A stretch of 63,668 nt of DNA, filler included, from Lenisia limosa (taxonomy: Eukaryota; Protista; Breviatea), in NCBI GenBank assembly GCA_001655205.1. It is 10 parts of 10 records of this genome, joined end to end, with 100 filler letters (N's around TTAATTAATTAA, not from the genome) between each part and the next. Parts side by side here need not be neighbours in the genome. Positions count along the whole stretch, not along the records: positions 1 to 24,175 come from LPNZ01010213.1; positions 24,276 to 27,221 come from LPNZ01000400.1; positions 27,322 to 28,878 come from LPNZ01005725.1; positions 28,979 to 33,078 come from LPNZ01001219.1; positions 33,179 to 34,325 come from LPNZ01001557.1; positions 34,426 to 36,029 come from LPNZ01009366.1; positions 36,130 to 37,973 come from LPNZ01004922.1; positions 38,074 to 39,653 come from LPNZ01004939.1; 2 more parts are not named here. The stretch is one strand, 5' to 3'. A program made the position numbers and the translations under genes. Numbering within the stretch: position 1 is the stretch's first letter; each line of letters opens with the position of its first letter. Shown here in pieces: positions 5,421 through 61,493 of the stretch. The notes below the pieces were generated by a model, which worked only from the letters and a program-made list of their open reading frames with translations, was not told the origin of the DNA and did no database searches.

Positions 5421-5573
5421 CTGCGGGGGGGAGGAGTAAAACTGGAAAATTTATGAATCAAAAAAAAGCCCAAAATCAACTCTGTTGGCTGACACCACGA
5501 GGTTTGATAACAACAACAAACAAAGCCCAGATCAGTCGCTTCTGCAACATCGCATCCCATCACTCCAGCGTAC
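5421..5573 (-). mobile_element. Intronic repeat family A, most complete copy (GTACGCTGGAGTGATGGG...CCCCCCGCAG, 153 nt, GT-AG bounded)
   Basis: Related copies or parts at about 12135, 20245, 21912, 24276/24500, 27481/27565, 28751, 35914, 38387, 38920, 39425 and 59156. Shared core GCAGAAGCGACTG..GGGCTTTGTTTG..GTCAGCCAACAGAGTTGATTT.GGC(T)n.TTTCATAAATTTTCCAATTTTAC(C)n. Confidence 0.8.
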
Positions 5574-6536
5574 GGGGGTGGGTGTCAAGTAAGGAGTGGA
5601 AAATAAGGGATACAGAGTAAGGTATAAATGGGAAAGATAAAGCAAGTTTAAGATACAAAATTACAAAAGATGATGTTGTGCGCTCTTGTGTCTCATTTGT
5701 TTGTGTTCTCATTCCTGATTATTTCCTGCTGACCAAAAACAGAAAAACTTATGCATTCTTATCCATTATCAAATTTTGTATAAAATCAATATTGCCTCAT
5801 ATTATCAGAGTGAAAGCAACGGCTGGAACATTATGATTTTGGACAGACTTACAGTTGTGGTTGTAAAGGCATGAATTTGTCTTCGTATTGATCAGAATTA
5901 AATTATACACCATTTTCGACTTTGCAATAAATAAGCAGAATTAAAGAGGGGAAAGAGAGCTCAGAAGCTCAGCCAACAACAAAAAGGGCTCTACTGGAGG
6001 GGCTAGATGGGTAGCATTTAATTGAGTTTTTGAAGCCCCAGAAAGGCCCTCTTACAGCTGAAACGATATATAAGTTTATAATAGCCAAATAACTGGAGAA
6101 GACGCCAAGATCCCTGTTCTTCCTGAACGGTCATATCAGATCACCCTTCATCCGAAACTTGGCAACCATTGTTCATAATCTTATCAAGTTCAAAATGTAG
6201 ACAATTTATCTTGCTGTACTTTCATGAGTAGCTTATTAGCATGTGAGTGGATATCTTTGTTCTTTGGTTGGTCATTGTCCTTTCGTTTTTTAATCAAGCC
6301 ACTGTAACTTGGCCTTTAAGTTCGTGGTAAAACAGTTCACATTGAACGATACTGATTGTACTTCGTGGGAAAAGTGCTATTTTATATCACAGAGTTTTGG
6401 TTGTTGTTTTTTTTTTGGCCTAATGGAATTCATATTGTTCTCTCTATTCAACCCCCCCTCCCGTTGTGCTTTGTTTTTTGCTCTTTTTTTTTTCTCTTCA
6501 AGTTTTAACATTGGTTGCTCATGTTTGTCACTGCTT

Positions 6537-6723
6537 TTTTTGGAGTTTCAGATGATTCGGTTCGTGATTGGTACCTTTACGCCAATATTCTTCATCGAAA
6601 GCGATTACTTCATCGAAATTTCCTTCGTTTCACCCCTCTTTAATGCCAATATTCTTCGATATTTCCTTCGTTTCACCCCCCTAGAATGCCAATATTCTTC
6701 GAAATTTCCTTCATTTCACCTAG
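6537..6723 (+). repeat. Intronic repeat family E, with three tandem acceptor-like tail units
   Basis: Core GGAGTTTCAGATTATTCGGTTCGTGATTAGTACCTTTACGCCAATATTCTTCATCGAAATTTCCTTCGTTTTAC(C)nAG. Also at about 7385, 20205, 20396, 24465, 27524, 27775, 37152, 39397, 39527 and 59240. Confidence 0.8.
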
Positions 6724-9190
6724 AATGGCACTGGTCTCGTCATACTGGGGCCGCGTGTCGTCGGCCGAAGATGGGCCGACAGTTCCGCCAAGCCTCGAGC
6801 CGACCTCCGACGACTTGCTGCTCCTGGGTGAGGGGGGGGGGGGGNNNNNNNNNNNNNNNNNNNNNNNNNNNNNNNNNNNNNNNNNNNNNNNNNNNNNNNN
6901 NNNNNNNNNNNNNNNNNNNNNNNNNNNNNNNNNNNNNNNNNNNNNNNNNNNNNNNNNNNNNNNNNNNNNNNNNNNNNNNNNNNNNNNNNNNNNNNNNNNN
7001 NNNNNNNNNNNNNNNNNNNNNNNNNNNNNNNNNNNNNNNNNNNNNNNNNNNNNNNNNNNNNNNNNNNNNNNNNNNGCAACAATAGGAGACCTTGATATCC
7101 ATCATTAACTGCAACAGGAGACCTTGATATCCCGGAGGATCGAACAGGCCTGTCTGGGGATGAGTATTCCTTCTCAATGTCGACGTTGTCGTCGTCTATG
7201 CCCACACACTCGAGACTCACACCGCAGTCCAAGTTGGAGGGCAGTAACAGTCGATGTGTTGGCTTTCGGTTGAGATAGTCAGTATATCATCAATGTGTTG
7301 TCTAACTTCCCACATTCCTCACTCCTTCCCCGTCTCTAGTAATATTTCACTTAGTTATTGTTTGTTTGTTTGTTTGTTTGTTTGTTTGTTTGTTTGTTTG
7401 GAATTTCAGATTATTCGGTTCGTGATTAGTAACTTGCGCAAATATTCTTCATCGAANNNNNNNNNNNNNNNNNNNNNNNNNNNNNNNNNNNNNNNNNNNN
7501 NNNNNNNNNNNNNNNNNNNNNNNNNNNNNNNNNNNNNNNNNNNNNNNNNNNNNNNNNNNNNNNNNNNNNNNNNNNNNGATTCCTGCCACAAAGCAACTCC
7601 AGCCCGGTCATCCCAGACTACGAGGCCGTTATGTACTCGAAACGGCCGCAGACGGCACGTGAACGCACCAGCCGCTCCGAGCATTCAGAGAAGAGGCCTA
7701 CAGGCACGCCAGCGCCACCGTCGCATCAACGCCCGTCTACAGCCGGGCCACGGTCGCGGAGGCCAAGTGCGGCTCTTTCGTGCTCAGTGTCCAGCGCAAT
7801 GACCCGCCCCGCGACCACCACCACGAGACAGCGAGGTGGCTGGGCTTGGAAGTTGTGGGGCTATAAAGGACTTCATATTGGTCTCACAGGATTATTTTGA
7901 TGAATTCTGATAAGTATGTAGCTTTTTGTTTTGCTTCGTCTTTTTCTGAAAGTGCAGCTTCTATTATATATAACGCTTAAACCGTTGCATTTGGGGTACA
8001 CATTATAATTAATATCCCTTAAAAAATTGCTGAATATTGAATGGTGGTGACATAGTAATGGCTCGAATGGTGACGATTAACGATTGTAGGGGCGTCTCTG
8101 TCATACCAGAAAACACCGAAACGCCCAAGTACAGCACCTGCTTCAAGATCCCGGGTTGGCACATGGGGGGCTTTGTTCAAGATCCCGGGTTGGCACATGG
8201 GAGGCTTTGCTCAGATCCCGGGTTGGCACATGGGCTTTGCTCAAGATCCCGGGTTGGCACATGGGGGANNNNNNNNNNNNNNNNNNNNNNNNNNNNNNNN
8301 NNNNNNNNNNNNNNNNNNNNNNNNNNNNNNNNNNNNNNNNGTTCAAGATCCCGGGTTGGCACATGAGGGGCTTTGCGCAAGATCCCGGGTTGGCACATGA
8401 GGGGCTTTGTTTTCAAGGGGTGCTGCAAGTCGATGATCTGATAATGTGGATTAGAATCATTTTACCAGGGCCTAGAAAATCATCATTAGAAAGTATCAAG
8501 ACAGCATATTGTTCCTCACCACTTAGGCTCAAAGTCTCTATGATACGTCCATTTTGACGGTTCCCCAATTAGACGAAACTCTCAAACAGTCCCTTTCAAA
8601 ACCTGTATGAAGGGATAACGTCAATTCAGTCCAAACTTACGTCTTTTTTCTAATGTGATGATATGACAATCACTGGGCTGGTCTTTTATTTCCGTTTCAC
8701 CTTGAATATGTCAATGATATCACAGAAAAAGAAACAAGATAATACTTTACTTACTATTATATGATATACCGACATATCGTTTTCAAGAGGACGATGTAGT
8801 ATTATCCAAGTGCAGCCTTATATTTTTCTCACCCTTCAGTCCACCCCGCCGTCGTCCACCTCATCCAAGAGACCAAGTAAGCATGGTTTATGTCTTTCTG
8901 CACCAAAGTTTGTCTTATACCCTCCCTCGTTTTAGGATTTATTTTGCAGTTCTACATATCATATAGAACATATGATATGCTCAGCAGTGCAAATGGGGCA
9001 GAACGAATTCACCCCTAAACCAATTCGTCGCTGGTGTCAGTTGCAGCAATAAAAAGATCAAGAAACGACGCAATACCTTGCAACAACATTTCCCCTCCTG
9101 CTCAGTGTCAGGTACCAGCGTTTTTCTGGAGATCTTGTTCGGCGTGAACTTGACAGAGGCACAACATCGGTTCGCACAAGAGGGAGGGTA
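6724..9190 (+). CDS. Low-complexity Ser/Pro/Arg-rich exons, possibly the N-terminal part of the downstream cNMP-binding gene
   Basis: GT-AG-bounded open segments near 6724-6828, 7120-7235, 7578-7830, 8839-8876 and 9112-9188. No recognisable domain, and connectivity is not established. Confidence 0.3.
7360..7398. repeat. (TTTG)n microsatellite leading into a family E copy
   Basis: About 10 TTTG units directly 5' of GGAATTTCAGATTATTCGG. Confidence 0.85.
8141..8410. repeat. Minisatellite, 30-35-bp unit TTCAAGATCCCGGGTTGGCACATGGGGGCTTTG (at least 6 copies, gap inside)
   Basis: Head-to-tail units with no spacers. Confidence 0.9.
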
Positions 9191-9659: not shown

Positions 9660-12600
9660 CAAGCTTACAGAAGAGGTTCCTTTGGGGGAGTCTTTGTATA
9701 GCCATGAGGATACTGTCGAGGTCGCGGTACTCACTTATGCTGGTTGAGGTGATTGGCATAAAAGCAAATGTTTTGAGGTTAATCTTGCGCTTCTGTTTCC
9801 TCAAGCCAGCTCGGTTCGCAGCAGGGATTAGACTATTCAAAAAAAATCCCGTTCATGAAAACTATCCAAGACTGACAAGATGGTAATAAATGATATTTCG
9901 TGGAAAATAGCAACACACACAGAAAAAGGGAGGTCGAGACGATATATAGTACGTTTATTGTTGCTTTGTTTTATACTTTCCAATACATATAGCTATACTG
10001 TATTATTTCTCTACATATTGTTCATCCTTATTGATTAAATACCGTTTTTAACATTTTGCATTTCTCACCCCATATCTCACACCGTTTTAGACAACAAGAA
10101 GGTGTTCCCAAGAGCTACATTGGCAGACTTTGCAGAACTTCAAGCTGAAGCAGCACTATTGTATGCGGAATTTCAAAACGGCATCTTTTAAGGAGACGAA
10201 ATTCTTCTTTTCAAATCAATGTGAACGAAGCTGTATCATATTTTTTTTAGGATTGAAAAGGCCCAGGAGGCTGCAGATAGGGCCAAAATGCGGGATGGTG
10301 TGAGGTAGGACGGGGGAGGGGGAGATAAAGAAATAGCCCTAAAATACAGCCTATTATACATCATGTAGTCATTTTCACATCTTGTTTTGTTGTTGGCCTT
10401 ATGTTCTTTGATCATGATAATCCTGTGATCACAGATCAGCATTCCTGTTATCCTGATGATCATTTGATCTGAAGCTCTCTAGATCGGGGCTTTTCAAACG
10501 ACTGGAGGCCATGGGTGTAACTCGCAGAGTCCTTCAAGACCTAATACAGGTCTGATGCGTTCAATAGTGGCAATACCCCTTTTTCTAGGGACTCACTTCG
10601 CTCCGAAAATAGACTGAATTTCTCGATAACTCGTCGAAAACTATTGAGATTTTACGGGTCTTTTTCTGACCGAAGTGCAGTCCGACGTATAACCAATGCA
10701 GGTGGTATCTCCTCTCTTTTTTTACTCTGTATAACCTGTAATATAGCGTATCTGTTTTGGTAGAGTGGGCAGGAAAAGGGTGGGGGTGTAAAAATGGAAG
10801 GGATGGCTGGATAAGAATGGGGGAAGTTGGTGTTGTCGAATGTGATCTGTTCACTCTATTTACGCACTAATTTTAAGTGTTCCCTGTGTCTTCTACCCGT
10901 TTACCCCTGACCTGTTATCAGGTAATGAAGTTGCAGTCTTGGGATGATGGCGAAACATTGTTCAATCAGGGCGAGGAGGTAAGGTGCAATTCTATCAGGT
11001 TTTATTCGGTTCAATACAGTTATGATATCGTCATCGTCATATGGATTGAAGTGGAAACATAGTAACATGTGCAATAATGCTGTTATATTTGATGTAGTAT
11101 TTGTGAAACTATGTATGTGTGGAGGATGGATAGTTTTTTTTTTGTTTTAAACATTGAAATATTCCCGAGTAACATCGGAATAGCTTCTGCCTGAAGTGGA
11201 GCTCACATCAAAAGATGCTGTTGATTCCATTCACATCTATGTTTTGACCCCTTTAGGGTACGCACTTCTACGTCATTCTTCGAGGCTCTGTCAACATTTT
11301 CGTTTCTCCTGATGCAACGGATTTGTCGAAGGTTCGCATGAAGTCCCTTTTGTTTTGTAGTCAAGTCCATTAAAACTGGGACATTCAGATTAATAAAAAG
11401 CGGAGACAGAAAAAGGGACTTCACTGATAAAGCTGGTTGAAATCAGAAAAGAATCGGCTTCATGTTGGTGCTAAATATTTGGATAATCACATCATAGTCG
11501 TGACTGTGTACGGTGTTGGACACTCATATTACCGAAAAGCCGCCTTCAGTCTTCAACATCTTACCTCATTGACTTCTACTTCCCCTCATTTCTACCACCC
11601 GCTATCGTTCTTATCTGCTCATTTCATGGATAATCCTCACACCCAGTCCTTCCAAGTTGCCACATTGAACGCGGGTGACAGCTTCGGTGAAATTGCCCTT
11701 CAAAATGACTCAGCTCGAACGGTAAACAACTGGTGCTGTTTTGATATTTCTTTGACATACTAGTTAGTTCCATTGATGATGTCAAACTTATAATTGTATG
11801 TTTTAACTAATATGTTATCCTTTTTAAGGTTCTCAATCTTTTGATTATGAATTGAAGCGTCCCAATAATTTCCTAGGCAACAGTGAGGTCGAACGGAGGG
11901 ACGGTGTGCATGCTTCTGGGCAGGCATGATTTCGCTGGAGTCATACAGAAGGCCCATCTTAATGAGAAACAAAGGTTTGAGACCTTTTGAAACCGTTTAA
12001 CCTTGATAATATGACTAGATTATTATTGTAGCAAATATCACATACATAACTGGTGGTTTTTTCTGCTTCTCTTGACTTCTCATTTTACCGTGTTACATTA
12101 GCGTTTCCTGGGCTTTGTTTGTTGTTGGTTTTCAACCCTGGTGTGTGATATTTATAACCAAGAGAGTTGATTTTTGGCGTTTATTTTCAAAATGCCCTTT
12201 TTTACCACCCCCCCCCCCCCNNNNNNNNNNNNNNNNNNNNNNNNNNNNNNNNNNNNNNNNNNNNNNNNNNNNNNNNNNNNNNNNNNNNNNNNNNNNNNNN
12301 NNGTGGAAAAGCCTTGCAAAACGCCAGACACTTGGAGAAAAGGTCCATTTCAAGTACTACAACCAGGGAGAAGAGATTCAGCGTCAAGACAAAGTTGGCA
12401 AGGCTCTTTTGACTGAGACGTGAAAAAAGATGTATTGATTTCATTTTTTGGACCTTCAAGTGTTCCAAACTCTTTTTACTGATTTCAGTACCAACATGAA
12501 CCAATATCCCATTTCGCCCTTATTCACCCATTCAGTCTTCGATCGGAGTGGTTCTTGTCATTCAGGGCCATTGTCGTGTTGTGAGAAAGTAGGCAAAACA

Positions 12601-18304: not shown

Positions 18305-21300
18305 ATGTTGCGCCTATGGGGCCTGTTAGGGGTAGTAACGTGGCTACTGATTGGAAGTGCCGTATCATATGAAGTCACAATTCTCCATTCAGGGTTAGAC
18401 GGGTGAATTTATTTGGGCACTTACGGTCGTGGTCTCCTCTGCCCTCTACATCCCCGTAAAAACATTTAAATGATCATATCAGTTGCTACCCCATCGGGAA
18501 TAACGCCTTGCAGGTTATCCTACGGTCATTTTCAGCCTGTAAGCAAGTACGGTTCCGATTGTGAGGCTACCGCTATTGCTGCTGGAAGCTGTTTGGGGGA
18601 CCAAAGTGGCTATTTTGGAGTTATAAATTGACTGTTGACCAGTATAATACATTGATGTAATTTTCATTTACGTCGTCACGCATATCATTTTCCCCCCCTC
18701 TAACAGCTTTTCCACTTCTGTTGCATATCATATCTTATCAAACATAAGTTTTAGTTACTTCCTGGGTTAAATGGGATATTTCCTTGTTTTGAATGTTCTT
18801 TTTTGATGGAGCACTGTGAGCCATTGATGCTCTGCTCCACATATCACATGATAGACGGACAGTTGTTAGTTGATTCCATCATTTCCTCCAACACTTGCCT
18901 TCAGAGTGGGAAGACAATTTATTGAGCCTCCAAGCGTGCGGATACGTATTATAATACATTTTAATACTGGGAGACAGCACCCCCATTGTTAAATGAAATC
19001 CGAGTATATATTCGCTTTTTTTTCTTTTGCAGTAGAACTCTGTCTTGTAGGATAATCAAGAAATTTCGTGTTTTTCAGGATTACAGGGAAGTTAAGGTCA
19101 CTTTAGTCATAAAAACAACTGAATATCAATCACTTCTCAATAAAAACATCTTTAACCGCCAATTCTGTCTCCAATTAAATGCCGGTTCAGTTATTCCAAT
19201 TCCCTTTTTTTTTGTAATATGTCGCTTCCCAGGCCATGGCGGGTTTGCGTATCGCGCGAAGGCGCTCCATGATGAGATTGCTGCTGCTGTTGGAACAGTC
19301 ACTGTCGTCTTGGATACAGGCAACACCATTGGCTCGGATAAAATGAATGTAAGTGGTTACGGGGCTATCATCGTTGCGCTCCTCCTGTTTCTCAGAAAAA
19401 AACCCAGCTGATATAGGGAAAGAAGATTTCATCTTTCTCTGCACCATTGTCTCTAACAACCAGGCATACCATCGAGGCAAAGAAGGCGCAATTTATGCTG
19501 CTTTTGGGTCAGTGTGGTCTATGAATGTCTTATCTTATATACATAATTACATATGATAAGGTATGATGCCTTGGTTTCAAAACCTGATATGCTAACACTG
19601 ATTTTTTTGATAAAACACTGATTTGTTTAATATGATCTGGGCTATGTGAAGCAACAAATTGTTCTTTTCATTTGGTGTGATTTTCAATGCTTCACGTTTG
19701 TCCTGAAAAGATGGGCAGATTAAGTCAATTATTTGCACCAATAAAGCTCCTTCTTTGACAGTGTTTAGGGCCTACAATGCATTTGGCCTGGGCGTAAGGG
19801 ACTTTGCAGACGCTGGGTATAGCATAGAGCGGTTTTCAAACTACTCTGGGGTGGGTGGGTCGGATTCGAGCGGTTTTCATGACATCACCTTTTGGGGATT
19901 TAAACATAGTATTGAAGTAATATACGATATGTTACAATGGTGATATCATTAATATGTTATTATCGCTATTAAGCCTGAGTGTGTGGAGGCCTCTGCCAGA
20001 TACACCTTGTTTTATTGAACATTTCTTCATTATCATTGTATTCAGGTTCCCTATGTTTCAACAAACGTGGATCCTTCCTCGAATAGTTACGTAAAAGAAA
20101 CCCTTATGCCGTACCATGTCTTTACGGTTGGGATGGCTACATGTTTTGATTCTTGTTGTTTGTCAGTTTTAGCGTTGGTTGCTCGTGTTACTGCTTGTTT
20201 TTTATTTGTTGTTTGTTTGGAGTTTCAGATTATTTGGTTCGTGATTAGCTTTTTTTTTTTGATTCATAAATTTTCCAATTTTACTCACCNNNNNNNNNNN
20301 NNNNNNNNNNNNNNNNNNNNNNNNNNNNNNNNNNNNNNNNNNNNNNNNNNNNNNNNNNNNNNNNNNNNNNNNNNNNNNNNNNNNNTAGTTCCTTCACACG
20401 AATATAATTCATCTATATTTCCTTCAGTTTACCCCCTCATGTGTTCCTCAAGTGTTTTGTCATCAGAGTTGTTCTTTTTTGTTTCGATGTTTCGTTTACC
20501 CACCCCCCCTAGAGTTCGGGTCATAGTGTTGCTGTCCTTGCTCTCACAGCGTCTTCGATCAATTCCCAGTCAACAGTCAAGAACTTGACGCTGTCGCTTT
20601 CAGCCATTGCTGTAGCGGAGGTACGAGTCTGGATCAATGTATTGCTCTTTTGTTTCATGAAAAACTAACGTTTTGTAATTTACGATTTCATAATAATTAC
20701 CATCCAATGTCATGTGGTTACATCCCGAGTGGAGATGAGACAGGCCTGACACTTTAGACCTGTGGAAAGGCGAGGGGCGAAGGCGCAGAAGTAGTGATAC
20801 TAATGTTCGGCTCTGATGTAAGTGGTGTTTTGTGATGTATTTCAAGCCGAATCCCTCAAGATTTGATTCTAGCTTTATGAACCACTTTATTATGGCAGTT
20901 TGTTTTGGATGAAGGGGAGGCCCTAATTATTGCCTATTTATTGCTCCTCTCACACCTCCAGGACTCAGACGTGATGCTTGATCCGAGTATCCTCTCCTCT
21001 GGCTCTCTACAGTGTATTTCAGCAGTCATTGGTATTAACCAAGAGTCTGTATGCTGGAGAGTGATTGGGTAAATCAATTTGTTGGAGATTTCGTTTTGTG
21101 TTTTTGTTTCGTTCATTAATTACAACCCTTCCAGAATCTTCAACTACTGGGCAGTATACCGTATTTCTCCTGTAGCGACTGTCCGTTTGGTCGCGGTTAT
21201 GGGTATGCTTGCTACCTCTTACTGTGATACAAGGTGTATGGTTTCAATATTCGGTTTTTGTTTTGTTTTAACCGAATTTGACTCCTTTTTACTGTTCCAT

Positions 21301-24070
21301 TTTAGCTTACCTTATCTAGAAAGTACACCTTTTCTGTTGATGGCGAAGGGAACGTTTTGAACGCCAACGCGACATCTATTCAAATACAGTGAGTCCCGGT
21401 CTTTACCGTATTTGCTTCTCTCTTCTCTCAAACAGTTTTGGGTTCGTGACCTTTACATCGGCATTATTCATTCTTCGTTTTGTTGCCCCCCCCCCNNNNN
21501 NNNNNNNNNNNNNNNNNNNNNNNNNNNNNNNNNNNNNNNNNNNNNNNNNNNNNNNNNNNNNNNNNNNNNNNNNNNNNNNNNNNNNNNNNNNNNNNNNNNN
21601 NNNGATAAATGTTCCATTTTATCACCCCCACCAGGCCGCAAAATATGACGGAAGATGCTGTGGCAGCCGCGGCTATTTTGGCCCATGAAGCGCCCCTTGC
21701 TGGTAGGAGGGGACGACGAGTGTTATGCGGGTTTTAGGTGATGGGTGGGTGGTTGGGGTATCATGGTGCTGAAGAGGAGGGTGATGGGTTGTTATGGGTG
21801 TGATGATTGATTATTATCGTCAAGGCATAAAAAGACTGCATTTATTGATATAACCCTGTCTTTTCACGTTTAGAAACTCTCACCTTCCCCCACCTATTTT
21901 CTATTTTTAATTGATGGGATGCGGCTGCAGAAGCGNNNNNNNNNNNNNNNNNNNNNNNNNNNNNNNNNNNNNNNNNNNNNNNNNNNNNNNNNNNNNNNNN
22001 NNNNNNNNNNNNNNNNNNNNNNNNNNNNNNNNNNNNNNNNNNNNNNNTTGACGGCATTCGCTACACCTCTACCGCCCTCGGTCACTATGTATGATATGGT
22101 ACTTTCATGTATTGTTAATAGGGCTTCACTACGGCCCAAAAAAGATTGGTAAAATATCGATATTTTTCGAGGATTTATTTAGAAATTCATAATTTTTTGG
22201 GGACCGAAGTGAAACCCTAATTGTTATGCGAGTTGTAAATGTTGGTTCTTCCCTGGGCTTTTTTTCAAATATGATGAGAGTAAAAATTGGTGTTAATATC
22301 GTATTATGTCTAAAGTGCTTCTCCATTTACCCCTGATCTTAAACGCTGTGTTGACTCTTGAAGATTTCAAAGGCTCTGCGGTACTCTGCTGAACTAGTGG
22401 AAGGTCCCGTGGACATAGCGGTTATAAACGGTTAGCATGGGGATAGCATCTTTTAAAAACAGTTTGGTAAACACCGAATACATAAGTTCGTACTCTAATG
22501 AGATAAATAAAGTCATACTCTGATGTAATTCCTAGTCTAGGGAGTGGTTGAGGTCTCCAAGTTTGCTCAGTCACACACATTATAGTGCTTATATTTATTT
22601 GCCTATTGAGAGATATATTAGATGTAATATGCATATTATATTGATATAGTTTTAATACACATATCATATACGAACTATTCACGTTGTACTGGATATGGTG
22701 ACTTATTTTCCAGCTGGCGGGATCAGAGCAGGCCTTGCAGGAAACGTCTCTGTCAGTGATATATGTTGGTCCAAGATATGGATTGGCTATATATATTTTT
22801 TCCGGTATTTTTCGATAAAGCCCTCTTACAGTGTAATGTTCAATAGCATTTGTTCCACTCTACCAATGGGAGGATAGGAAAATAGGAAATGATGAGATTA
22901 TGGGTTGTTGATTGACCTTGCAGCGGAATGCGTCCCTTATAACAATGCCATCTCAAGTGCAACTATTTCGTGGGGAGGGGAGGGGCTTGTCACAGTCCAT
23001 TTGCAACCCTTTGATCATTTCTCCAAATATTTAAGTCCAATTTAAATCCCCCAGTGTTACTCAACTAGTTTGCGCAATATAACTTCTCCAGGGGGGCTAC
23101 GGTTCTGAAGATGCTGCACAACTCAGTGAGCACTTTGACGACGGAGGGACTTGAGGACCTCACCGCATCGGGTACTGGAAGGTTCCTTCAGGTTGGGGGT
23201 TTAGGGCTGCTGATCGAAATCGATTCTTTCGTGTATTGAATTTTCAGTGTAATGGCGGTATGGCTTCAGCCAGATTCTCCCATTATTTTTCTTATTTCCA
23301 CGTATTCCATCTTTGACCAATACTCTAGGTGGATGGCTTGTCATTTANNNNNNNNNNNNNNNNNNNNNNNNNNNNNNNNNNNNNNNNNNNNNNNNNNNNN
23401 NNNNNNNNNNNNNNNNNNNNNNNNNNNNNNNNNNNNNNNNNNNNNNNNNNNNNNNNAAATTCTTTCCTCAGTTTTTATACAATTGGTATACGTATGGTGG
23501 GGAGGCACGCAGAAAGCTGTATTCACAGAGTTTTAAGGCACATGATTGGGTAACTATTTTACTATAATCCAATATCTCCTATAAGCGTGATGGTGTGGGT
23601 GGCTTCGGCCAGATACACCTTAGTTTTTATTTCTCATTGCTTTTTTCACGGAGTTACTCTTTATGAACCCACAAAAAAACTAACAACTAACCTCTACAGA
23701 TTGACGGGAAGGGGGACTTGGACCTTGCTGCAAAGTACCGTCTCGTGTGTCCTGATTTCATTTTGGGAGGGTACNNNNNNNNNNNNNNNNNNNNNNNNNN
23801 NNNNNNNNNNNNNNNNNNNNNNNNNNNNNNNNNNNNNNNNNNNNNNNNNNNNNNNNNNNNNNNNNNNNNNNNNNNNNNNNNNNNNNNNNNNNNNNNNNNN
23901 NNNNNNNNNNNNNNNNNNNNNNNNNNNNNNNNNNNNNNNNNNNNNNNNNNNNNNNNNNNNNNNNNNNNNNNNNNNNNNNNNNNNNNTTTTTACCTCCTTT
24001 TACCCCTCAGAGGCGACGGGTTCAGTATGCTTGCTGAGGAGGCTGAATACATGAACCTTGACGGACCCAT
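18305..24070 (+). CDS. Secreted or membrane 5'-nucleotidase/apyrase-family protein with degenerate metal-binding motifs (3' end cut by linker)
   Basis: Signal peptide MLRLWGLLGVVTWLLIGSA, then VTILHSG, HGGFAYRAKAL..VVLDTGN, YNAFGLGVRDF, VPYVSTNV..PYHVF. C-domain motifs DIAVIN/AGGIRAG..SVSDI, VPYNNAI, LKMLHNSVS..GRFLQ and YRLVCPDFILGG/GDGFSML. Confidence 0.85.
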
Positions 24071-24275: not shown

Positions 24276-24649
24276 CAAAACAAACAAAGCCCAGTCCTGC
24301 CGCACCACATCCCATCACTCCAGTGTAGTGAAATACAGTTTTTTTTGTTTGAAAACAAAAGAGGGAAACAAAACACTGATATCCCAAAGAATCAAACCGC
24401 GAGAAACAGTGAGAGGGAGGAGAGAACCAGTGAGAGGGGGAGGAGAGTAAAATTGTAAAACTAAGGTAATTTCGAGAAGAATATTGGCGTAAAGGTATCA
24501 CGAGTGAAAATAACTTATGAAGCAAAAAAGCCCAAATCAACTCTCAACCAACATTAGCATTTCTATGCACAGTACAGATTATGCATAATATCATTTAATA
24601 ATATATGATATACACAATAAACTTGCCACCTCCACTCAATCCATCCCCC

Positions 24650-27329: not shown

Positions 27330-28586
27330 CCCCAGAACGCAGAAGGAAAGGACGCGGATATTGAGGCGCTCTGCCGGCACTTCGCCACCGAAACCGGCCC
27401 GTTCTCCAAAGTGGGGCGAGGGGTGTGATAAATATATTACATCTAAGAATATGATAGTATTATTCTGTTTATTCTCAAGGGTTTTTTTGTTTCATAAATT
27501 TTCCAATTTTTCTCCCCCGTAACAGTACCTTTACGTCAGTATTCTTCATCAAAATTTTCTTTCAACTCTCGTGTGTTGTCAGCCAATTGAGTTGATTTGG
27601 GCTTTTTTTTGTTTCATAAGTTTTCTAATTTACCCCCCCCCCCCTCNNNNNNNNNNNNNNNNNNNNNNNNNNNNNNNNNNNNNNNNNNNNNNNNNNNNNN
27701 NNNNNNNNNNNNNNNNNNNNNNNNNNNNNNNNNNNNNNNNNNNNNNNNNNNNNNNNNNNNNNNNNNNNNNNNNNTAGTACCTTTACGCCAATATTCTTCA
27801 TCGAAATTTCCTTCGTTTTACGTCCCCCACAGGTTCTCACTGCACTTCCGCCCTCCGCTTGGACTTCTCTTGACCTTGCAACCAACACCGCAACTAAGGT
27901 GGGGATAATATAAATAATCTTTATTTTATTTTACTATTAATTTGTAATTTATTCTTAATATTAATTTTATGTTTATATTTAGTATCAAATTATATACTAT
28001 AATATAGTAATACTTATATACTATTAGCTGACATCCCCACATACAGTCACACACTCCCCTCCTTTTTTATTATTTCTTTACCCCCAATAGTTATGCGACA
28101 CTGCAGCGCTCCGCTCCCGGGCACTCTCCCACGAATTTGTCACGAAAGTAGGGTAAAACGAAGCAAATCTGATGAAAATTGAATTCTCACGAGTTTGTAA
28201 CTAAAGCAGGCTTAATTGCCCCCCCTTTCTTTTTAATCTTTACACACACACACACACAGACATTCACTCACTCACACACTAACACAGAGTATTTGGAGTT
28301 ATTTGAATTTGCTTCCCTTTTCCGAAGATTTTGCACCCCCCCTTTCCACACGCACACAGGTTCCTCCCTATTTTTGTTTTTCCATAAAAGTTCCATTTTA
28401 CTCCAAAACAATTCATTTCACACCACAGATGAAGCCGGCCCAAAAAGCCATCCTATCCAAAGTAGTCAGTCGTCTCTGCCCCCGACCTATCACCCAGGAT
28501 GTTATGAAGGCTGTTGTGGACATTCTTCAGGCCTCTGTTGAGCCGGATGCTGTGTCCGCTGAGTCGTGCTCAAAGATACTAGGCGT
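27330..28586 (+). CDS. Internal fragment of a helical-repeat protein, possibly PDS5-like
   Basis: Exons NAEGKDADIEALCRHFATETGPFSK / VLTALPPSAWTSLDLATNTATK / MKPAQKAILSKVVSRLCPRPITQDVMKAVVDILQ. The last resembles the PDS5 L..R..P..I...+..L+ segment. Weak match. Confidence 0.3.
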
Positions 28587-38080: not shown

Positions 38081-39652
38081 ATGACGACGCCACCAAGGCG
38101 GCCGACGAATCCCCCACACCCACACCCACACCTGGAACCCCGACGTCCCCGACGTCCCCGGGTACCCCCTCCAGCCCGGGGCCGCCTGACCAGGTCATGT
38201 CCGAGGCGAAACCGCTGCAGCACGCGAGCCGTGCAAAACCGAGGTTTGAAAATGGATATTTCATGAGTGTGAAAATGGATATTGGATCTGAAAACTGGAT
38301 AGGGTTAACTACATAGTATGAATAATTATATTTATTTTTTTGGCAAAATTGAGGTTTGAAAATGGATATTGAAGATGTGGGGTTGGAGGGATGTGGTGAC
38401 TGGCCTGGGCTTTGTTTCTCGTGTGTTATCAGTCAACAGAGTTGATTAAGGACTTTTTTTTTGTTTCATACTGTTTCCATTTTACTTCCCATAGGAAGAA
38501 AACCTCGCGACCCCCCACCCGTAGACNNNNNNNNNNNNNNNNNNNNNNNNNNNNNNNNNNNNNNNNNNNNNNNNNNNNNNNNNNNNNNNNNNNNNNNNNN
38601 NNNNNNNNNNNNNNNNNNNNNNNNNNNNNNNNNGTTAAAGAACAAGAATGCAATCAATTAATTGAGAGAGAGAAAAATACAAATAATCCCTTCTGTACAA
38701 AGGTTGTGTACATGTGTATTATGTGTCTCTATTATGTGTGGTGTGTATGTATGTATGTGTGTGTATACAGTGACCGGGATAAGTCTTGACCGATTTGCTA
38801 TGTGATTTCCCAAGGGATAGGTCAAGACGTATCCCGGTCACTGTACATATGTATGTATGGGAGAGAGTTGTCTGTGTATATGTAGATGTGATACAATTTT
38901 CATTTTTCCTCACCTCCCACAGCCAACATAGTTGATTTGTGCTTTTTTTGTTTCACAATTTTCCAATTTTACACCCCCAGGAAGAAGAAGAAATCCCAGT
39001 CATCAAGGAGGATCTAGGAGAGGAGGCGGAGGCAAGACTGCCACCCGGGGGCGAGGCAAATACCCCTGGAAGTAGAATGTCCATGCCGCCCGGTGCTATG
39101 CGTGGGGGGGGGGGGGNNNNNNNNNNNNNNNNNNNNNNNNNNNNNNNNNNNNNNNNNNNNNNNNNNNNNNNNNNNNNNNNNNNNNNNNNNNNNNNNNNNN
39201 NNNNNNNNNNNNNNNNNNNNNNNNNNNNNNNNNTTGGCTATGCGTGGGATGGGGGGATAGCGTGGTATATATTTTAATATAGTGATTCCCTACAGTCCGA
39301 AAAGACCGTTAAAATATCGATATTTATCGAGGGTTTATTGAGAATTTCTGTCTTTTTTGGGACCGTAGGGAAGCCCTATTACAATCGTTATTTAGTACCT
39401 TATCGCAAATATTCTTCAAAAACCCCTGCAGAAGCGACTGGCCTTAGTTTTGTGTCGTTGTTATAAACCCTCTTGTGTTAGTCAACAGACTTGATTTTGG
39501 GCTTTTTTTGTAAATTTTCCAATTTTCACGCCAATATTCTTAAACTTCCTTCGTTTTACTCCCTCCCCCTTCCCCCATCCTCACATTGTAGCCGGTATGG
39601 GCGCAATGGGCATGATGGCCGGAATGAACATGGCCGAATTACGCGCAAATAT
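38081..39652 (+). CDS. Pro/Thr- and Gly/Met-rich C-terminal region of a hypothetical protein
   Basis: Exons DDDATKAADESPTPTPTPGTPTSPTSPGTPSSPGPP, EEEEIPVIKEDLGEEAEARLPPGGE and GMGAMGMMAGMNMAELRANM. Confidence 0.4.
38768..38843. mobile_element. MITE family D (76 bp, TIR CAGTGACCGGGATAAGTCTTGACC, TA flanks; Tc1/mariner-like)
   Basis: TA|CAGTG...CACTG|TA at this copy. Related copies at 34178-34252, 35437-35513 and 63362-63433. Confidence 0.82.
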
Positions 39653-39803
39653 GNNNNNNNNNNNNNNNNNNNNNNNNNNNNNNNNNNNNNNNNNNNNTTA
39701 ATTAATTAANNNNNNNNNNNNNNNNNNNNNNNNNNNNNNNNNNNNNNNNNNNNCACCATGACACCAATCAAGCTGGGTGGAAAAATCGTTAATCATTCAA
39801 GAT

Positions 39804-49471: not shown

Positions 49472-49604
49472 TTATGTGATTAGTAAATGTATGATTGTTT
49501 CAGTTTCACTCGGTTATATCGGCTATTATTGTACATAATCATAAAAACAAACAAAAAAACTAAAAAAAAAATATCAACAAGACCTCAAAAATACACAACC
49601 TTAA

Positions 49605-52600
49605 CTATAAAGCAGGGGTAAGAACGAAGGCATCTTCAACATTTGATGGGTTGAAATTAAAAACATTTCCGTATTTGTCTTCAAGATATGTTTTCACATT
49701 ACTACTGCAGAGAATCTAGACAATGAGACATGGAGGGGCATCAAAATTCCGCAAAAGGTGTCTCTACTCTTCAAATCCCCAATAGCAGAACCCCGTTTAC
49801 CATGCCTTCACCAGCAGATTGCTCCAATCGTTCGACCTCGTCCATGACCGGGCCCCACACCAGGTATCGCGGCTGTTTGACTGCACAGACCGCCGCCACC
49901 GCGAGGCCGTGACCGATACCTGAGAGCGTGACTTGTCTGGGTTAGAAAGTGCAGTACATGGGACACCATAGCCAACCAATGCGGATTGGGGCAGTGATGG
50001 AGTTCGGCGACCGACTGGCGCGCTACAAAGTCAGATATCATCATTTAACGATAGTAATGCAACGATATGGGTTAGATAGTCTTGGTAAAGCTCCTTGGTA
50101 AGAAGTGGCCTGTTATTGAGGCAATTGATCACCAAAGCACACTTACCGTGGCAATTTCAAACGTGGCAGTTTGAATGGCACATGCTGTATGAGCGATGGA
50201 TAGAATGGACTTGCTTGAAGTGTGCGCAATTCCAGCGATAGCCTGGATCAATGAGTGGGGGGGGGGGGGGGNNNNNNNNNNNNNNNNNNNNNNNNNNNNN
50301 NNNNNNNNNNNNNNNNNNNNNNNNNNNNNNNNNNNNNNNNNNNNNNNNNNNNNNNNNGGCTAGCAACACACAAGGGTTGAGGGTTGAGAACAGCAAAAAC
50401 AAAGCTCAAGCATCCCATCACACCAGAGTAAAGAAGTTGTCACAACCGTACCCCTGCCAACCACCCAGGCGTCCCCTATGGTATAGAGCTTGAAAACGTT
50501 ATTCTTGAGGGCTTCGGCATCACAACGAGCAAAGAAGGAGTTGAGGTACCGGAACATCACCTAAAACAGGGTTAATCGAAATAGAAGCGACAGTGATCAT
50601 TACACAAAACCTCCTTCAAAATGTTTAGTAATTCGAGAATATTCAATCAATAAGAAAAATTCCAAAACTAAGTGGTCTGGGCAGAGTAAATAAATACCTG
50701 GGGAGTCGTTGAGCTTGAAAGTGCAGTAAAGTTGACAATGTCCAGCTAAAACATGAATCCAACTTGAGCTGTTGTGGGTCTTACCTGTAGAACAGTGAGG
50801 TTTGGGAAGGTTTCGTGAAGATGAACCGCGGGGTCAGCGGATTTGAGAATGGCCTTGACCGCATGTCGGGGTAGCAACAAGTACAGGAATGCTGGACGGT
50901 TTAAACAAAAAATGTTTCTGTGGGAGTTTTTCTTTCTGTACCAGTCAAACGCCGGATCTCTATGATCCTAGTTTCAATAGACTAGACTGCAAAAAAGGAC
51001 GCCAACCTCTTGATTGCCTGTTACTTGCTTCGGAGGCGTTCTTAGCAAGGAATGTTCGTCGCGCAAGCTTTTCTTGGTATGCGGCTACCACTATCGACAA
51101 TGACACCAGCCAAAAGAATATGAGAACCTGCATTGTCAGGGACTACTACTAAGTTTCATAGGCAATACACTTTGAGAATCACCATGGCAATAATAATGTA
51201 CAGCTGCTGACATGGAATTGAAGGGCTTCATTACCAGGCTTGGCGGTGACCATGAAAGCAAAAAACTTGAGAGCAGAGAAACCGCAAATGGGAATTCTAA
51301 ACAATAATAAATTATGCAAGATAACAGCACACACAAACTTGTGGGATAAGGGGATTCTTGTGAAGAGAAACATGAAAACAACCGCAAAGAAGTAGCCTAA
51401 GCTGATAAGACAAGGTCTTCAAAATATTGACCAAAAGAGTCACAAGCCCACCTGGTGAGACATAGTCTGAGTTGTTGTAGTCGGAAGGGATGGGTCCTGT
51501 CACAAAGCAAACAACCACGAGGAGCACACGGAATGCAAATTGACGAATACTAAACGGTCAAAAGACGCCACGTCCTTACTTTTCATTTTGGGAGAAGAGC
51601 TGAATCAAGGTAGTTGGGATTGCCAAAGCAAGTTGGATGAAGAGGGGTACAACACGCAGCTACACTGTGAGAATTGATATTAGCCTACCTTGCTGTCATC
51701 GAACAGCTCCGGATTGATTTTGAGTGCGATGATCAAAGGCATTATCGTTGTCACTGCAATCAAAATCGACAGTGTCGTGTCTGCAGTCTGAATGATTAAT
51801 CATGGTAACTGTGGTCATAACCCTGTTGAAATGCTTCGCTAACTTTATTTGAACGCCCGTATCTGTAAATGAACTTCTTCTCCAAATGTGTGAGGTACTT
51901 TGAAATGGTCACATCCTACGATATGATATCATATTTCAAAAAAAAAAAACACTCACATCATATTCAAACTCGACCGAATGGACTATTTCATCTTTTCTTG
52001 AGAAAGCCCTAAAACTGTCAAACTACTTTACAAAGTGACGTAGCGGGAAATATAGGATATTGATACTCATCAAAATTTAATCGAAAAATTCGGTCAAATT
52101 TGAGAGCCCCAAGAGAAAAATTGTTACGCACAAAATACAAATAGTATGTACTATCAATTCTGATACCCACAGACGTTATAAAAAGGAAACGAACCCATCT
52201 TTAGACAAGTGCATACCTTGACGTTGGGATCGACAGACGACCCGAATAGCGACTATGTTCCGACAGGCGACCGGAGCTAAATTGTTAATAACGTCATGCG
52301 GTCGGACCCCCACGTTCTACTAAGGTTCGACTCTGTTTTGGTCATAGTATATGGACTCCCCAATTCATCAGCAGCCTCGCTCTCTTCGACATGTTTCAAT
52401 TGTTCGAACCGAAAGCCCAAAAACCCTGAGGAGTAAGTCATCGAATAAAACCCCAACCAAATGCGCGCCACGCAATCGTAACGCCCGAAAGCGCCTCAAG
52501 CATTGTCGATTTTTTTGATAACTTAAAGCGGCGGGAGGCGTGGATGGTGGACGTGGTCGACTCCATCGTTTCTGTGAAGTCAAAGGGGCCACAAGGACAT

Positions 52601-57081: not shown

Positions 57082-58382
<1,301 letters not shown>

Positions 58383-59075
58383 GTNNNNNNNNNNNNNNNN
58401 NNNNNNNNNNNNNNNNNNNNNNNNNNNNNNNNNNNNNNNNNNNNNNNNNNNNNNNNNNNNNNNNNNNNNNNNNNNNNNNNNNNNNNNNNNNNNNNNNNNN
58501 NNNNNNNNNNNNNNNNNNNNNNNNNNNNNNNNNNNNNNNNNNNGGTTTCACGTCTATCTTCTCCACCCGGTACCTTCCAGGGGCTCCGAACGTGTCAAAC
58601 TCAAGGGGAGATTTTGGGGGGTCCAGAGTGCTTTTCCTCCATAATACAAGGATGTGTGATTATACCAAAGCGCATTCCGCCGTCCGCATGAGATGGCATG
58701 CTTCAGCCTTAGCCTGGAGTACCGCACATGTATGGAAGTAGGTAGTCGCTGTTGATATCGTAGTCGGTATGTTTTGCTGCGTCCTTGGACTATAAATAAT
58801 ACATCACACACGGTCAGAGGTCTAGTACATACAAGCCTTTGAAGAGTCTTCTTCTTCCAATTCACCACTCATCCTGAACCATTAATGGCGATGAAAAGAA
58901 ACATGACAGCTATGGCTTCACTTACGGTTCGAAAAATGTCTGAATTTCTCGATAAATCCAAACTATCGATGATAACCGGGGTTTTCGAACCGAATGTGAA
59001 GCATGACTCATGGGAAGAAAAAAATAGTGAAGTATTCATAGAAAATAAGATGCAGCCCAGGGCGAACGTTTGAAC

Positions 59076-61493
59076 TCAAAGAATGGAGCAACATCCTCCG
59101 CCCTTGCCAGCCTCCTTTTCTGCAGCCTCCAAAGTTTCTCCGGCGGTTGTTCGTCCTGGGGGAGAGTAAAATTGGAAAATTTATGGAGCAAAAAAAAAAG
59201 CCAAATCAACTCTGTTGGCTGACATCATTCCAGCGTACGTATACGAAGGAAATTTAGATACAAAAAACCCAAAATTAATTTGTTCAAACTCCAGCATACC
59301 ATAGCCATTTGCTCTCAACACTAGCAGAGGACTGTGTTGATTGTTGTCCTGATATGTTAAACCAGTGAGAAAAATAACAAAGGTGCCAATCAAAAACAGA
59401 GGCCAAGATTGGGAAAGTCTATCAGGACCCACTCTGATCATGGGGTCCGCGCCAAGCTCCAAAAGAACCTATAACTGTTAAGCGTTGTGCAATTTTTTTG
59501 CAATTTTACCCACAAAAAAAAAAATAACTCAAGCAGGATCTTAACCTTCAACACTCAGTTCCCCAAAAAGATTATGTGGTTCTATGGGAAGAAAAGTCCT
59601 CCCACCTGGACAGCAAAAGGTTCGCCCTTCGATGCTGCACAATGCAAGGCCGTGCGACCATTCTACACCGTCAAACAGAGGCTAAATATACACTGACTAA
59701 TGCCACAAATAGAGAGAAAAATATAATAATAGCAAAAAGTAGCCGCAAAAGGAACCTTTTAAAAATACACCGTGGCGGCATGCACAAAGCCCAACTTACG
59801 TTCATTTTCGAGTCAATTGGGATATAGTAATCCCGAACCGCAGCTCTGATCATTTCACCATGGCCTGCCAGTGCCGCTAAGTGAACCATTGTTCTCTTCT
59901 CCTTGTCCTGAAGGACATAAAAAATAACAACCAAACAAACATATCACACAAAGACTGTTAACACCATGAATCGACTGTCTAATGAAGGCAAATAGCTTCC
60001 CTAAATAGCGCCATGACACCAAGAGGGTATAATGGCCAATGCGAAAAATACCGTCCCCCCTTACACAAGACTCAACATTGACCTGAATCACGTCCTTCAG
60101 GAAGCCGACCATGTCAACCATGCCTTCTTTGGCACAGTAGAGCGCCGCATTTTCACCAAGAAGATTCTAGCGTGTAAGTAAACTGTTTTTTAAAAAGAAA
60201 ATGGGTTTAAATAAATTGCATGTATTGTGTACAAAAATGAGGAAATCACAATATTACACCGTAATACTTAATATGATGATATATTAACCAAAAAGATTGC
60301 CACCATTCTTAATATTAAGGAATTTCCTGGCTATATAGTACCTGCTCCCCTTCCCATCCCCAAACCTCAGCATTGATTTCACACTCCAGTTTGTTGGCGA
60401 GGAATCTAAAGTATGAGCCTTCACCCAATACAGTAAGGGCTTTAGAGAAATGTAGCAAATTATAAAAGTATGAAGGTATTTGTGAAGCTTAAAGCTGTTC
60501 ACTTCGTCCTTACAACTCTCCATCTACACCGTATGTAAGTAGATTGGTAAATTAGGCTACCGTAGCTGACAATAAAACTGGCTATTCCATCAGAGATATA
60601 AGTAATGCAGTATCCGTGTCGAAAGTTCCAACCTGCAGGTATTCTGGTTCTTGGCCATGGCAGCATGGTGCAAAGGGGTGTTGCCTTTATCATCCTACAG
60701 TTATTACTTGAAGAAAACGCAAGAGAAAAGAGTACTTTAAGGCTAATCAGTTGAAATACTGGTTGTTCTTTTTTTACAATAACACAAATGGAATACAATT
60801 TTCCTTTAATAGTGTTATCATTGGATGAGGCCTGTGGCAAGTAATACTGTATATGAAGGTGGGGGGAGCGGGATAGGGGATGAGATATAATATTTGAAAC
60901 AGAGATGAGAAAACACAACCAACCTCGAATGTTGGATCGACATTACACCTCTTTACAAGAATGTGGATCGTGTCATCCTGGTTCAGTAAACAATCTAAGG
61001 GAGGAAAACCCATATTTTAAATTCATAATGCCAAAAAAAAAAATAAAAAAAAATTCTCGTTTTCAGAGATTCCCCCAAACATGTCCATTTTGGGCTGCCA
61101 AGTGGATAGGCGATAAACCTTTCTTGTTCTAAAAGATCAGCTTGGAAAAAGTGGGAAAATACAACACCCAGCAAGACCCACCATTGTCAATGGGTTTGCT
61201 TTGTATTGGAGAACAAGAGCTTCTACCAGCTTGCTCCTGCCCTGAGGGGGTAAAAAAAAAATACGCAGAAGAACAAAGCGGGGAAAGCTCATCTTACCTT
61301 TTCGGCTGCAAGATGAAGTGGAGTATTACCGTCCACATCCTAAACAAGTAAGAGAAGGCAGGAGGGACGCTTCCATTACCTCAAGATCAGGATCAATCCT
61401 TCCGCGTTCCTCCACCCATTGATCTAGGTCATTGACGGAGTATTTTGAGGCAATATCAAACAAAGTTATAGAGTCTAACTCGATACCACTCAT
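59076..61493 (-). CDS. Ankyrin-repeat protein ending in a basic region plus CaaX (GGGCCSIL*)
   Basis: DVDGNTPLHLAAEK-GRSKLVEALV, DDKGNTPLHHAA, LLGENAALYCAKEG, DKEKRTMVHLAALAGH, NGRTALHCAASKG, VLLELGADP. Confidence 0.88.

Follow-up and report, generated by a model that had tools for sequence, protein, structure and literature searches.

Sense-oriented, intron-shaped repeats in the breviate Lenisia limosa and their placement at existing intron 3' ends

Introners and related systems

In Micromonas, introner elements are described as short, non-coding, repeated GT..AG introns inserted in sense orientation only and at unique new positions, with nested or merged copies reported as well and buried remnants in older introns counted in tens (Verhelst et al., 2013, PMC3879977; Simmons et al., 2015, PMC4540971), namely 32 buried cases (PMC3879977). 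Broader surveys reported that introners carry their splice sites or co-opt them from the target and that some families have neither terminal inverted repeats (TIRs) nor target-site duplications (TSDs), both surveys demanding similarity to both intron ends and discarding secondary insertions in existing introns (Gozashti et al., 2022, bioRxiv 10.1101/2022.06.06.494994; Gozashti et al., 2025, PMC12130899); Lenisia is unnamed in the main texts of the two and in the 12 of 14 supplements of PMC12130899 that were covered. Fungal introner-like elements are repeated whole introns at new positions that decay to ordinary ones (Collemare et al., 2015, PMC4457414), again with no TIRs or TSDs (per Gozashti et al., 2022, 10.1101/2022.06.06.494994). 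Regarding RNA-level reactions, linear group II introns, which are ribozymes with their own reverse transcriptase, retrohome with the RNA joined 3' end first and an error-prone 5' junction (PMC3280974), and intron-lariat spliceosome circles join trimmed intron tails to the 5' splice site in yeast and human cells as a side reaction (PMC10996645); both offer precedents for such joining of intron RNA, and neither is known to target existing acceptors.

The window analysed here is a stretch of 63,668 nucleotides of Lenisia limosa DNA; the host is an intron-rich single-celled protist, kin of animals and fungi. A profile search places two repeat families, A (about 155 nt) and E (about 140 nt), at 17 host loci in this window. 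Both are short, non-coding and intron-shaped, and they lie in sense orientation, head to tail, where existing introns end. The traits listed for Micromonas elements, from small size and repetition to GT..AG shape, sense strand and nested or merged copies, are shared by A and E, which differ in that 16/17 loci add to a longer intron, predominantly at its 3' end, and are often 5'-short and stacked. The initial annotation had opposed these repeats to classic introners; the contrast stands insofar as most loci add to existing introns, but it is not absolute, as one RNA-confirmed intron is wholly A-like and as Micromonas introners are sense-only too and also found buried in older introns (PMC3879977). 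A and E have in common with the surveyed introners that they are repeated intron sequence with splice sites either carried along or taken from the target, and, like some of those families, they have no TIRs or fixed TSDs. Yet similarity at both intron boundaries is found at 1/17 window loci (59156-59299); most loci would thus drop out of surveys that demand similarity at both ends and filter secondary insertions.

Non-autonomous retrocopies that arise by target-primed reverse transcription, SINEs among them, have a constant 3' end and variable 5' truncation, together with junction microhomology, variable short duplications and no coding capacity. While A and E share all of these features, they differ from SINEs in having no tRNA-, 5S- or 7SL-like head (Rfam) and no poly(A), as well as in their intron-like ends and host-gene orientation. 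They also differ from MITE/TIR DNA transposons, as they have neither terminal inverted repeats nor a fixed-length target-site duplication.

The copies and their detection

The copies in the window are as follows (coordinates, strand, description):
5421..5573 (-): full-length A, GTACGC...CAG, taking up the final 153 nt of an intron that measures 432 nt from its probable donor at 5852, and spanning HMM positions 2-153 of 155; an RNA piece ends at 5420
5574..5682 (-): AG-free stretch of 109 nt with TTGAC, its last 80 nt 78% pyrimidine
6498..6723 (+): E copy with its final ~43 nt in triplicate, the last TAG being the acceptor; RNA begins at 6724
7368..7456 (+): E copy entering an assembly gap; RNA pieces 6724-6826 and 7117-7232 give the host strand
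12092..12220 (+): A copy (profile match), 5'-short, C-run end at a gap
20159..20512 (+): stack of E 5' part, A tail, gap, E 3' module and degenerate A tail; TAG acceptor called from an open frame
21903..21935 (+): A 5' part entering a 112-nt gap ahead of the next exon
24277..24545 (-): A tail and E 3' module (24545-24454), separated by 130 nt of unlike sequence from an A 5' part that enters a linker gap
27479..27832 (+): stack of A tail, E 3' module, A 3' half, gap and E 3' module; CAG acceptor
28720..28878 (+): old A tail, then A from position 12; C-run end at a gap
34050..34117 (+): diverged A 3' half, which takes up most of its 85-nt host intron
35914..36029 (+): A 5' part as tandem 53-nt copies, entering a linker gap
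37154..37289 (-): most complete E copy, its tail facing that of a family B copy
38384..38494 (+): A copy that has lost an internal segment; acceptor TAG, called from an open frame
38919..38980 (+): A 3' half that follows directly on an older CCCACAG, itself intact; the new acceptor is CAG
39392..39591 (+): stack of E fragment, A and E tail, with TAG coming after a further 25 nt that are not repeat
50243..50429 (-): A copy with gap; after the C-run, 15 nt with a branch-like motif and CAG
59156..59299 (-): entire intron of 144 nt, composed of two A-like units that begin GTATGCTGGAG (59299, the donor in use) and GTACGCTGG (59238); RNA joint of GT..AG type

With 17 profile matches for A (E<1e-3) and 12 for E (E<=0.0013) in the window, the earlier view that A (about 12 sites) and E (about 11) are real repeats lying in introns is borne out. 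In leave-one-out retests, 16/16 training copies of A and 10/10 of E were found again in the expected orientation (the weakest at E 0.017); no A or E match at E<=0.002 arose in 20 local Markov resamples. Identity to consensus is 74-97%, so many copies are old. Each window locus was matched by the profiles on one strand only, i.e. A and E have no terminal inverted repeats. Exact-pattern scans returned no A and no E in metagenome contigs, and no A in viral contigs. At the Rfam gathering score there were no matches in the window, including no tRNA, 5S or 7SL-like head, a search that diverged heads could escape. Fungal introner-like elements have a stable RNA fold; A, E and the whole intron 59156-59299 have no such stable fold (z 0.32, 0.57 and -1.15, respectively), whereas families C and D do fold (z -9.4 and -8.6).

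Full-length A opens with GTAYGCTGG in four copies whose upstream flanks are unrelated to one another, and GTAC at the same A start is also present in one DNA-contig joint from another genome site; another DNA-contig joint, 5546 to 5443, was rejected as a GTAC start since it is a variant of an internal A motif. In sequence, family E resembles an older tail joined to a GTAC..AG unit of 55 nt. At 5421, both parts of the arrangement described in the initial annotation were found, namely the 153-nt GTACGC...CAG unit (5573-5421) and, ahead of it, the AG-free pyrimidine stretch with TTGAC, which is probably a displaced older intron end. The donor of this intron we infer at 5852 from frame and depth arithmetic, and it keeps that standing because protein searches for the exons at 28432, 38981 and 5314 returned only DNA-called open frames (P0121, P0122, P0123).

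Orientation, acceptors and 3' anchoring

In the window, 16/17 loci follow the sense strand of the host gene (binomial p 3e-5), as had been claimed earlier along with one ambiguous E copy; the locus left over is 37154, which may be antisense to a kinesin-like fragment, and scoring it as antisense gives p = 2.7e-4. Host strand was taken from RNA contigs for the genes containing 5421, 6723, 7371, 12107 and 59156, from a weak Pfam cyclase match at 50243, and from our reading of open exon frames at the remaining window loci. A flank-only strand classifier concurs at 13/16 loci, 3 of which share a gene with its training set, and dissents weakly at three loci in the Pro-rich gene 38074-39653. In mis-binned contigs outside the window (G001), which took no part in profile training, 9/10 loci are sense, none is antisense and one is without strand call, so that the pooled count is 25/25 assignable loci in sense (p 6e-8), with two further loci without strand call. 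For one 24-aa exon of an outside contig (L001), which we take to be galactokinase, PDB and Pfam searches gave no match. Family B was rejected as a neutral control because it is sense-biased too (9 sense vs. 3 antisense, own calls) and its difference from A/E is not significant (Fisher p 0.07).

It had been foreseen that RNA could show the repeat AG to be unused as an acceptor; instead, the AG directly behind the repeat is the acceptor at 3/3 RNA-covered sites (5421, 6723 and 59156; RNA contigs of one run), and the copies are removed by splicing at 3/3 sites with RNA cover. Three of the six acceptors named at the outset thus have RNA behind them; the others, at 27832, 38494 and 38980, were called from open frames. 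A branch-like motif lies 7-13 nt before the end in 14/14 RNA-confirmed introns, and A's own at 12 nt. The repeat was also said usually to supply both pyrimidine tract and terminal AG: the former holds, the latter does not as a rule. The branch-like motif and the pyrimidine tail come from the repeat, while the AG belongs to the element in some copies and to the host in others. Repeat end and AG are separated by <=5 nt in 15/19 resolved ends and by <=50 nt in 19/19 (seven MITE copies, for comparison, stand ~37-238 nt from AG), the four remaining ends having 15-50 nt of foreign sequence in between, e.g. 15 nt at 50243 and 25 nt at 39591. At L023:3837, in a contig outside the window, a second A unit follows, ending at the AG at 3916. 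An older acceptor is intact upstream at 38920 and at L023:5849, which fits acceptor take-over, and both sites have the same AG|CCAAC 5' junction, a short homology.

The copies are anchored at their 3' end, frequently 5'-short, and arranged in head-to-tail stacks, which recur at one intron end at 20159, 27479, 39392 and L023:3756-3916. Of 19 gap-free 3' ends, 17 extend into the final 25 positions of the model, and of 27 5' ends, 10 extend into the first 12 (p 6e-4), a tally that takes in one transposon-split unit and one with internal deletion; summed DNA-contig depth is 20,923 near the 3' end of A and 12,301 in its middle. This polarity could also reflect selection keeping a functional tail while the 5' part decays. 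Resolved introns other than 59156-59299, which is A-like throughout, donor included, hold 17-290 nt of unrelated 5' sequence. Flanking duplications are absent or of 6-14 nt (14 nt at L023:100-228, p 0.003; 6-7 nt at 5421 and 38920), vary by copy, have no fixed length, and are patchy and in low-complexity sequence; an ACTC duplication at 50243 was dropped, as ACTC trails the C-run in other copies too. No fixed trimmed-tail length of the kind found in lariat circles was seen among A/E copies.

RNA copying and its alternatives

Taken jointly, we read these observations as the work of an introner-like RNA that is copied into acceptor regions already present, beginning with its 3' end, a reading to which we give a probability of about one half. 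Spliced-out intron RNA would be copied into DNA at the pyrimidine- and C-rich end of another intron, the C-rich 3' end of the RNA pairing with a nicked template strand at the host acceptor region. From there, a reverse transcriptase provided in trans would extend the copy in the direction of the RNA's 5' end, frequently halting early, and the new end would be sealed through short homology. By delivering a branch-like TTTTAC about 12 nt from AG and a pyrimidine tail, such a copy would keep the intron spliceable and displace the older branch region upstream; it could then be excised in the sense direction and seed the next round, a full copy seldom making an entire intron. No reverse transcriptase was found in the 145 scanned of 198 gap-free window ORFs. 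Weighing against RNA copying, too, are the patchy flanking duplications, the selection that could account for the 3' polarity, the possible antisense position of 37154, the strand bias of family B and the RNA cover of three acceptors in one run, as well as the composite 24545-24454, which is not at an intron end, since ~130 nt separate it from the next A copy downstream. Regarding the earlier proposal of insertion at 3' splice sites with acceptor take-over, sense orientation, position and AG use stand, in contigs outside the window as well, the AG is sometimes the host's, and targeting we can only infer, because untargeted sense insertion followed by selection could yield part of the pattern. 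For the same reason, the within-intron position test (Fisher p 1.4e-4) is no argument for targeting, as selection predicts the same result.

Such selection is the core of a rather unlikely alternative, according to which a sense-only introner of the Micromonas type lands anywhere in transcribed DNA, e.g. by reverse splicing, and only intron-end copies and rare whole introns survive, since short copies in exons disrupt the gene, while a copy in mid-intron sets up a rival acceptor. The mid-intron composite at 24545-24454, the GT..AG shape of A and the one whole intron it makes speak for it, as do the sense-only, buried or merged elements of Micromonas (PMC3879977, PMC4540971) and the exact 3' and sloppy 5' junctions left by partial reverse splicing of linear group II introns (PMC3280974). 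Yet AG-less copies should then be tolerable mid-intron, and all four stand 15-50 nt from an AG; recurrent stacking at one intron end rather suggests a favoured site, and whole introns amount to 1/17 window loci only. That breaks at C-rich intron ends are repaired off other intron ends with similar pyrimidine and C-run tails, templated repair or gene conversion spreading the repeats with no RNA involved, appears quite improbable. While it predicts sense strand, 3' anchoring, varied 5' length, junction homologies and A/E hybrids, all of which are observed, and assembly gaps do gather at the C-runs of repeats, where they conceal 6 of the 17 intron ends, such copying should overrun the unit start into the donor flank, whereas four copies stop at GTAYG with differing flanks. 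Besides, outside the repeats, sense G-runs of at least 6 nt (19) match C-runs (17) in number, and no clear antisense copy is found there. Very little credit is given to the view that A and E are old classic introners whose host introns began as whole copies, the 5' parts having since decayed or been replaced: the low identity of many copies and the whole A-like intron agree with it, but at 5421 and L023:100 a longer intron encloses the GTAYG start, which is intact, the probable donor at 5421 is 279 nt further up in unrelated sequence, and the older acceptors persist upstream at 38920 and L023:5849.

Beyond RNA copying as such, it is a tentative and rather doubtful thought that parasitic intron RNAs home to existing 3' splice sites, each excised tail being copied back next to a further acceptor, swap the branch region and over time rebuild intron ends from stacked modules, with about one in ten introns having a mobile 3' end unseen by introner surveys. 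For introners devoid of transposon hallmarks, the RNA routes of movement proposed so far rest chiefly on sense-only orientation. The truncated, stacked and AG-less copies of A and E keep junction detail that is absent from whole-intron families, so that RNA copying, reverse splicing and DNA repair give distinct, countable predictions in one assembly. The present case suggests that filters on secondary insertions may hide a class of elements by which branch sites and acceptors are reshaped while no intron is gained. With Lenisia limosa, a breviate joins the lineages with introner-like repeats and, if RNA copy-back is true, it would display a route of intron spreading that present surveys filter out.

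Occurrence and strand of families A and E

Self-BLAST of the window gathered 22 intervals into a single A/E group, and profile models of 155 nt for A and 142 nt for E returned 17 (E<1e-3) and 12 (E<=0.0013) window matches, respectively, which together amount to 17 host loci. All training copies were regained by leave-one-out (16/16 for A, 10/10 for E), the profiles gave zero matches on 20 resampled windows, and copies are 74-97% (A) or 78-98% (E) identical to their consensus. The read data used were contigs of a DNA run (X1) and of a poly(A) RNA run (X2). Summed X1 contig depth reaches 20,923 at 5458 vs. about 33 in unique DNA; this depth, which by the tool's own warning is not a copy number, suggests hundreds of close copies or more. 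The window contains 48 N runs, nine 44N-TTAATTAATTAA-44N linkers among them, and therefore probably consists of several pieces joined together. Its exon 58116-58244 matches at 100% a transcriptome protein whose accession is labelled Lenisia limosa, a breviate protist. In many window introns, a G-run follows the donor and a C-run precedes the acceptor; the majority of the assembly gaps begin at such runs.

As proposed in the initial annotation, A and E follow the sense strand of their host genes, namely at 16 of the 17 window loci (p 3e-5), with strand called from RNA contigs at five loci, a weak cyclase match at one and open exon frames at the rest. A classifier reading the flanks only agreed at 13 of 16 loci, three of which have a gene in common with its training set; its three disagreements, all in one Pro-rich gene, were weak. 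Locus 37154, counted as unassigned, lies between a plus-strand fragment, presumably kinesin-like from its motif, and the end of what is probably a gene on the minus strand. Outside the window, a pattern scan located the A motif in contig L001 of the bacterial genome bin G001, and 5 of the 16 G001 contigs scanned have A or E matches. Ten loci in outside contigs, none used in profile building, comprise nine in sense by open exon frames and one unassigned, so that every one of the 25 loci with an assigned strand is in sense (p 6e-8).

Intron ends, donors and anatomy of the units

Where both intron ends are readable, the AG lies 3-5 nt past the repeat in 8 of 10 window introns and 15 and 25 nt past it in the other two; in outside contigs, the distance is at most 5 nt at 7 of 9 ends, and 19 and 50 nt at the other two. 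By comparison, it is about 37-238 nt for seven MITE copies and their acceptors. Six window A/E loci run into assembly gaps, and the composite at 24545-24454 is an exception to the intron-end position, since 130 nt of other sequence and a further A copy come after it. The AG behind the repeat had been claimed as the acceptor at six sites, and RNA contigs back it at the three they cover (5421, 6723 and 59156): one RNA piece stops at 5420 and a second begins at 6724, both belonging to records that continue at other positions, and an RNA GT..AG joint spans 59156-59299. At 27832, 38494 and 38980, the claim has its basis in open frames only.

At 5421, the GT of A itself is apparently unused. Because the frame stays open when the exon that ends at 5853 is joined, and the depth is accounted for (in bin 5675-6335, 1670 expected from the remaining 82 nt of the RNA record vs. 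1672 seen), A would make up the last 153 nt of a 432-nt intron with a putative donor. The search for a whole-intron GT-AG copy, advised at the outset, yielded one: the intron 59156-59299 consists throughout of two A-like units, the donor used, GTATGCTGGAG, matches the start of A at 10 of 11 positions (chance about 1e-4), and the ankyrin protein spliced across it is in frame and ends in CCSIL. Four A units with unrelated upstream flanks start with GTAYGCTGG (5573, 59299, 59238 and L023:100, L023 being a G001 contig). The both-ends introner test failed at 16 of the 17 window loci.

Gap-free 3' ends are near-constant (17/19 reach the final 25 positions of the model) and 5' ends variable (10/27 within the first 12 model positions). 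Head-to-tail stacking of units (A on A, A on E, E on A) is seen in the window, in L023 and, among the X1 joints listed, in joints from other loci. Family E has a composite look: the final 55 nt begin with GTACC, frequently directly after an AG, and two extra bases separate the E parts in L025. Branch-like motifs in window introns lie close to the end, at a distance of just 7-13 nt, a loose form being found there in 14/14 RNA-confirmed introns; since the TTTAC of A, at 12 nt, fits this range, the repeat is a plausible source of the branch site, as predicted from a loose motif. An older acceptor survives unbroken upstream at both 38920 and L023:5849, the join being at the same AG|CCAAC homology in each case. 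Flank duplications, which the initial annotation advised looking for as target site duplications, measure 14 nt at L023:100-228 (p 0.003) and 6-7 nt at both 5421 and 38920; none is evident at the remaining A/E loci. A and E have neither inverted ends nor a fold, and Rfam gave no family match for the window. The partner transposase or reverse transcriptase also sought was absent from the 145 of 198 window ORFs covered.

Other repeats and gene structures

Families C and D form hairpins of the usual MITE-like kind (z about -9) and are mainly mid-intron. Family B is without inverted ends, present in both orientations, starts with GTATG at apparent donors 3323 and 40445 and ends at acceptor 33369, with a 17-nt flank duplication around the 40445 copy; it is possibly an older introner family.

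Further repeat families in the window
Family B (about 156 nt): 596-675, 2146-2269, 3226-3323, 19961-20015, 23494-23641, 25818-25923, 29859-29987, 33261-33369, 36240-36327, 37013-37150, 40445-40601, 46037-46088
Family C (about 100 nt): 3644-3738, 10586-10683, 22119-22219, 26396-26449, 34466-34581, 36426-36522, 37800-37886, 39281-39378, 58911-59003
Family D (about 90 nt, TA flanks): 34172-34259, 35432-35519, 38763-38849, 63357-63439

Other observations in the window
8142-8411: 34-nt unit in tandem repeat across a gap
28979-29391 (-): exon with a Fer4_RLI match, which we take to be Tsr3-like
36329-36389 and 42813-42876: two-copy repeat, about 62 nt, opposite orientations
36820-36985 (+): two small exons resembling, by their motif, a kinesin motor stretch; one reading contains an in-frame TAA, and this may be a fragment of a pseudogene
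38233-38260/38343-38370 and 39095-39105/39236-39246: exon-intron donor junctions duplicated deeper within the same A-bearing introns
58874-59067: RNA-confirmed intron past the stop codon of the ankyrin gene, holding a family C copy; the CCSIL ending of this gene's protein is CaaX-like
62052-62304: near-perfect foldback of 253 nt, present just once in the window

At least six G001 contigs (L001, L023-L027) carry A-E-type eukaryotic repeats and intron-like gene structure; the bin appears contaminated, and these contigs are read as mis-binned DNA of Lenisia limosa or a close relative. An A copy in L023 is split by a 2.3-kb element (1420-3755) that has inverted ends and transposase-like frames without a Pfam match; the A copy is therefore older than this insertion. 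Tc1-type transposase pieces (HTH_Tnp_Tc3_2 and DDE_3) at L025:701-1563 make a possible candidate mover of the TA-flanked family D.

Mode of spread and relation to known introners

Micromonas elements are described in passages of PMC3879977 as sense-only, with 32 remnants buried in conserved introns as well as nested and merged cases, and part of PMC4540971 proposes reverse splicing into R-loop DNA for them. Two large introner surveys (bioRxiv 10.1101/2022.06.06.494994; PMC12130899) remove secondary insertions that fall within existing introns; Lenisia is in neither main text nor in 12 of the 14 PMC12130899 supplements, and the bioRxiv supplements could list it. A search of the literature on Lenisia or breviate intron repeats and on 3'-end-targeted elements, with most subscription papers outside its reach, returned no description of such a system.

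Spread of A and E by RNA-templated, 3'-first copying into acceptor regions is given about an even chance (roughly 0.5), and we infer every step of this movement. Intron RNA would be the template, as the discrete GT start of A suggests, and copying may be primed at the repeat tail, as suggested by the 3' anchoring and the junction homologies. Copies devoid of AG still lie near acceptors, which disfavours an always exact reverse-splicing junction and speaks against position by selection alone. A sense-only introner that inserts without a target, with selection as the filter, is a tentative second choice. Counting against the RNA-copy reading are the lack of an enzyme, the patchy duplications, the one mid-intron composite, locus 37154 with no assigned strand, and the orientation of family B (9 sense, 3 antisense and 1 unassigned by our own calls), which is not significantly different from that of A/E. 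DNA-templated repair is regarded as unlikely, and the decay of whole-intron introners as very improbable. The A/E repeat system is genuine and has a strong sense bias; it makes up the 3' ends of introns and behaves as an introner does.
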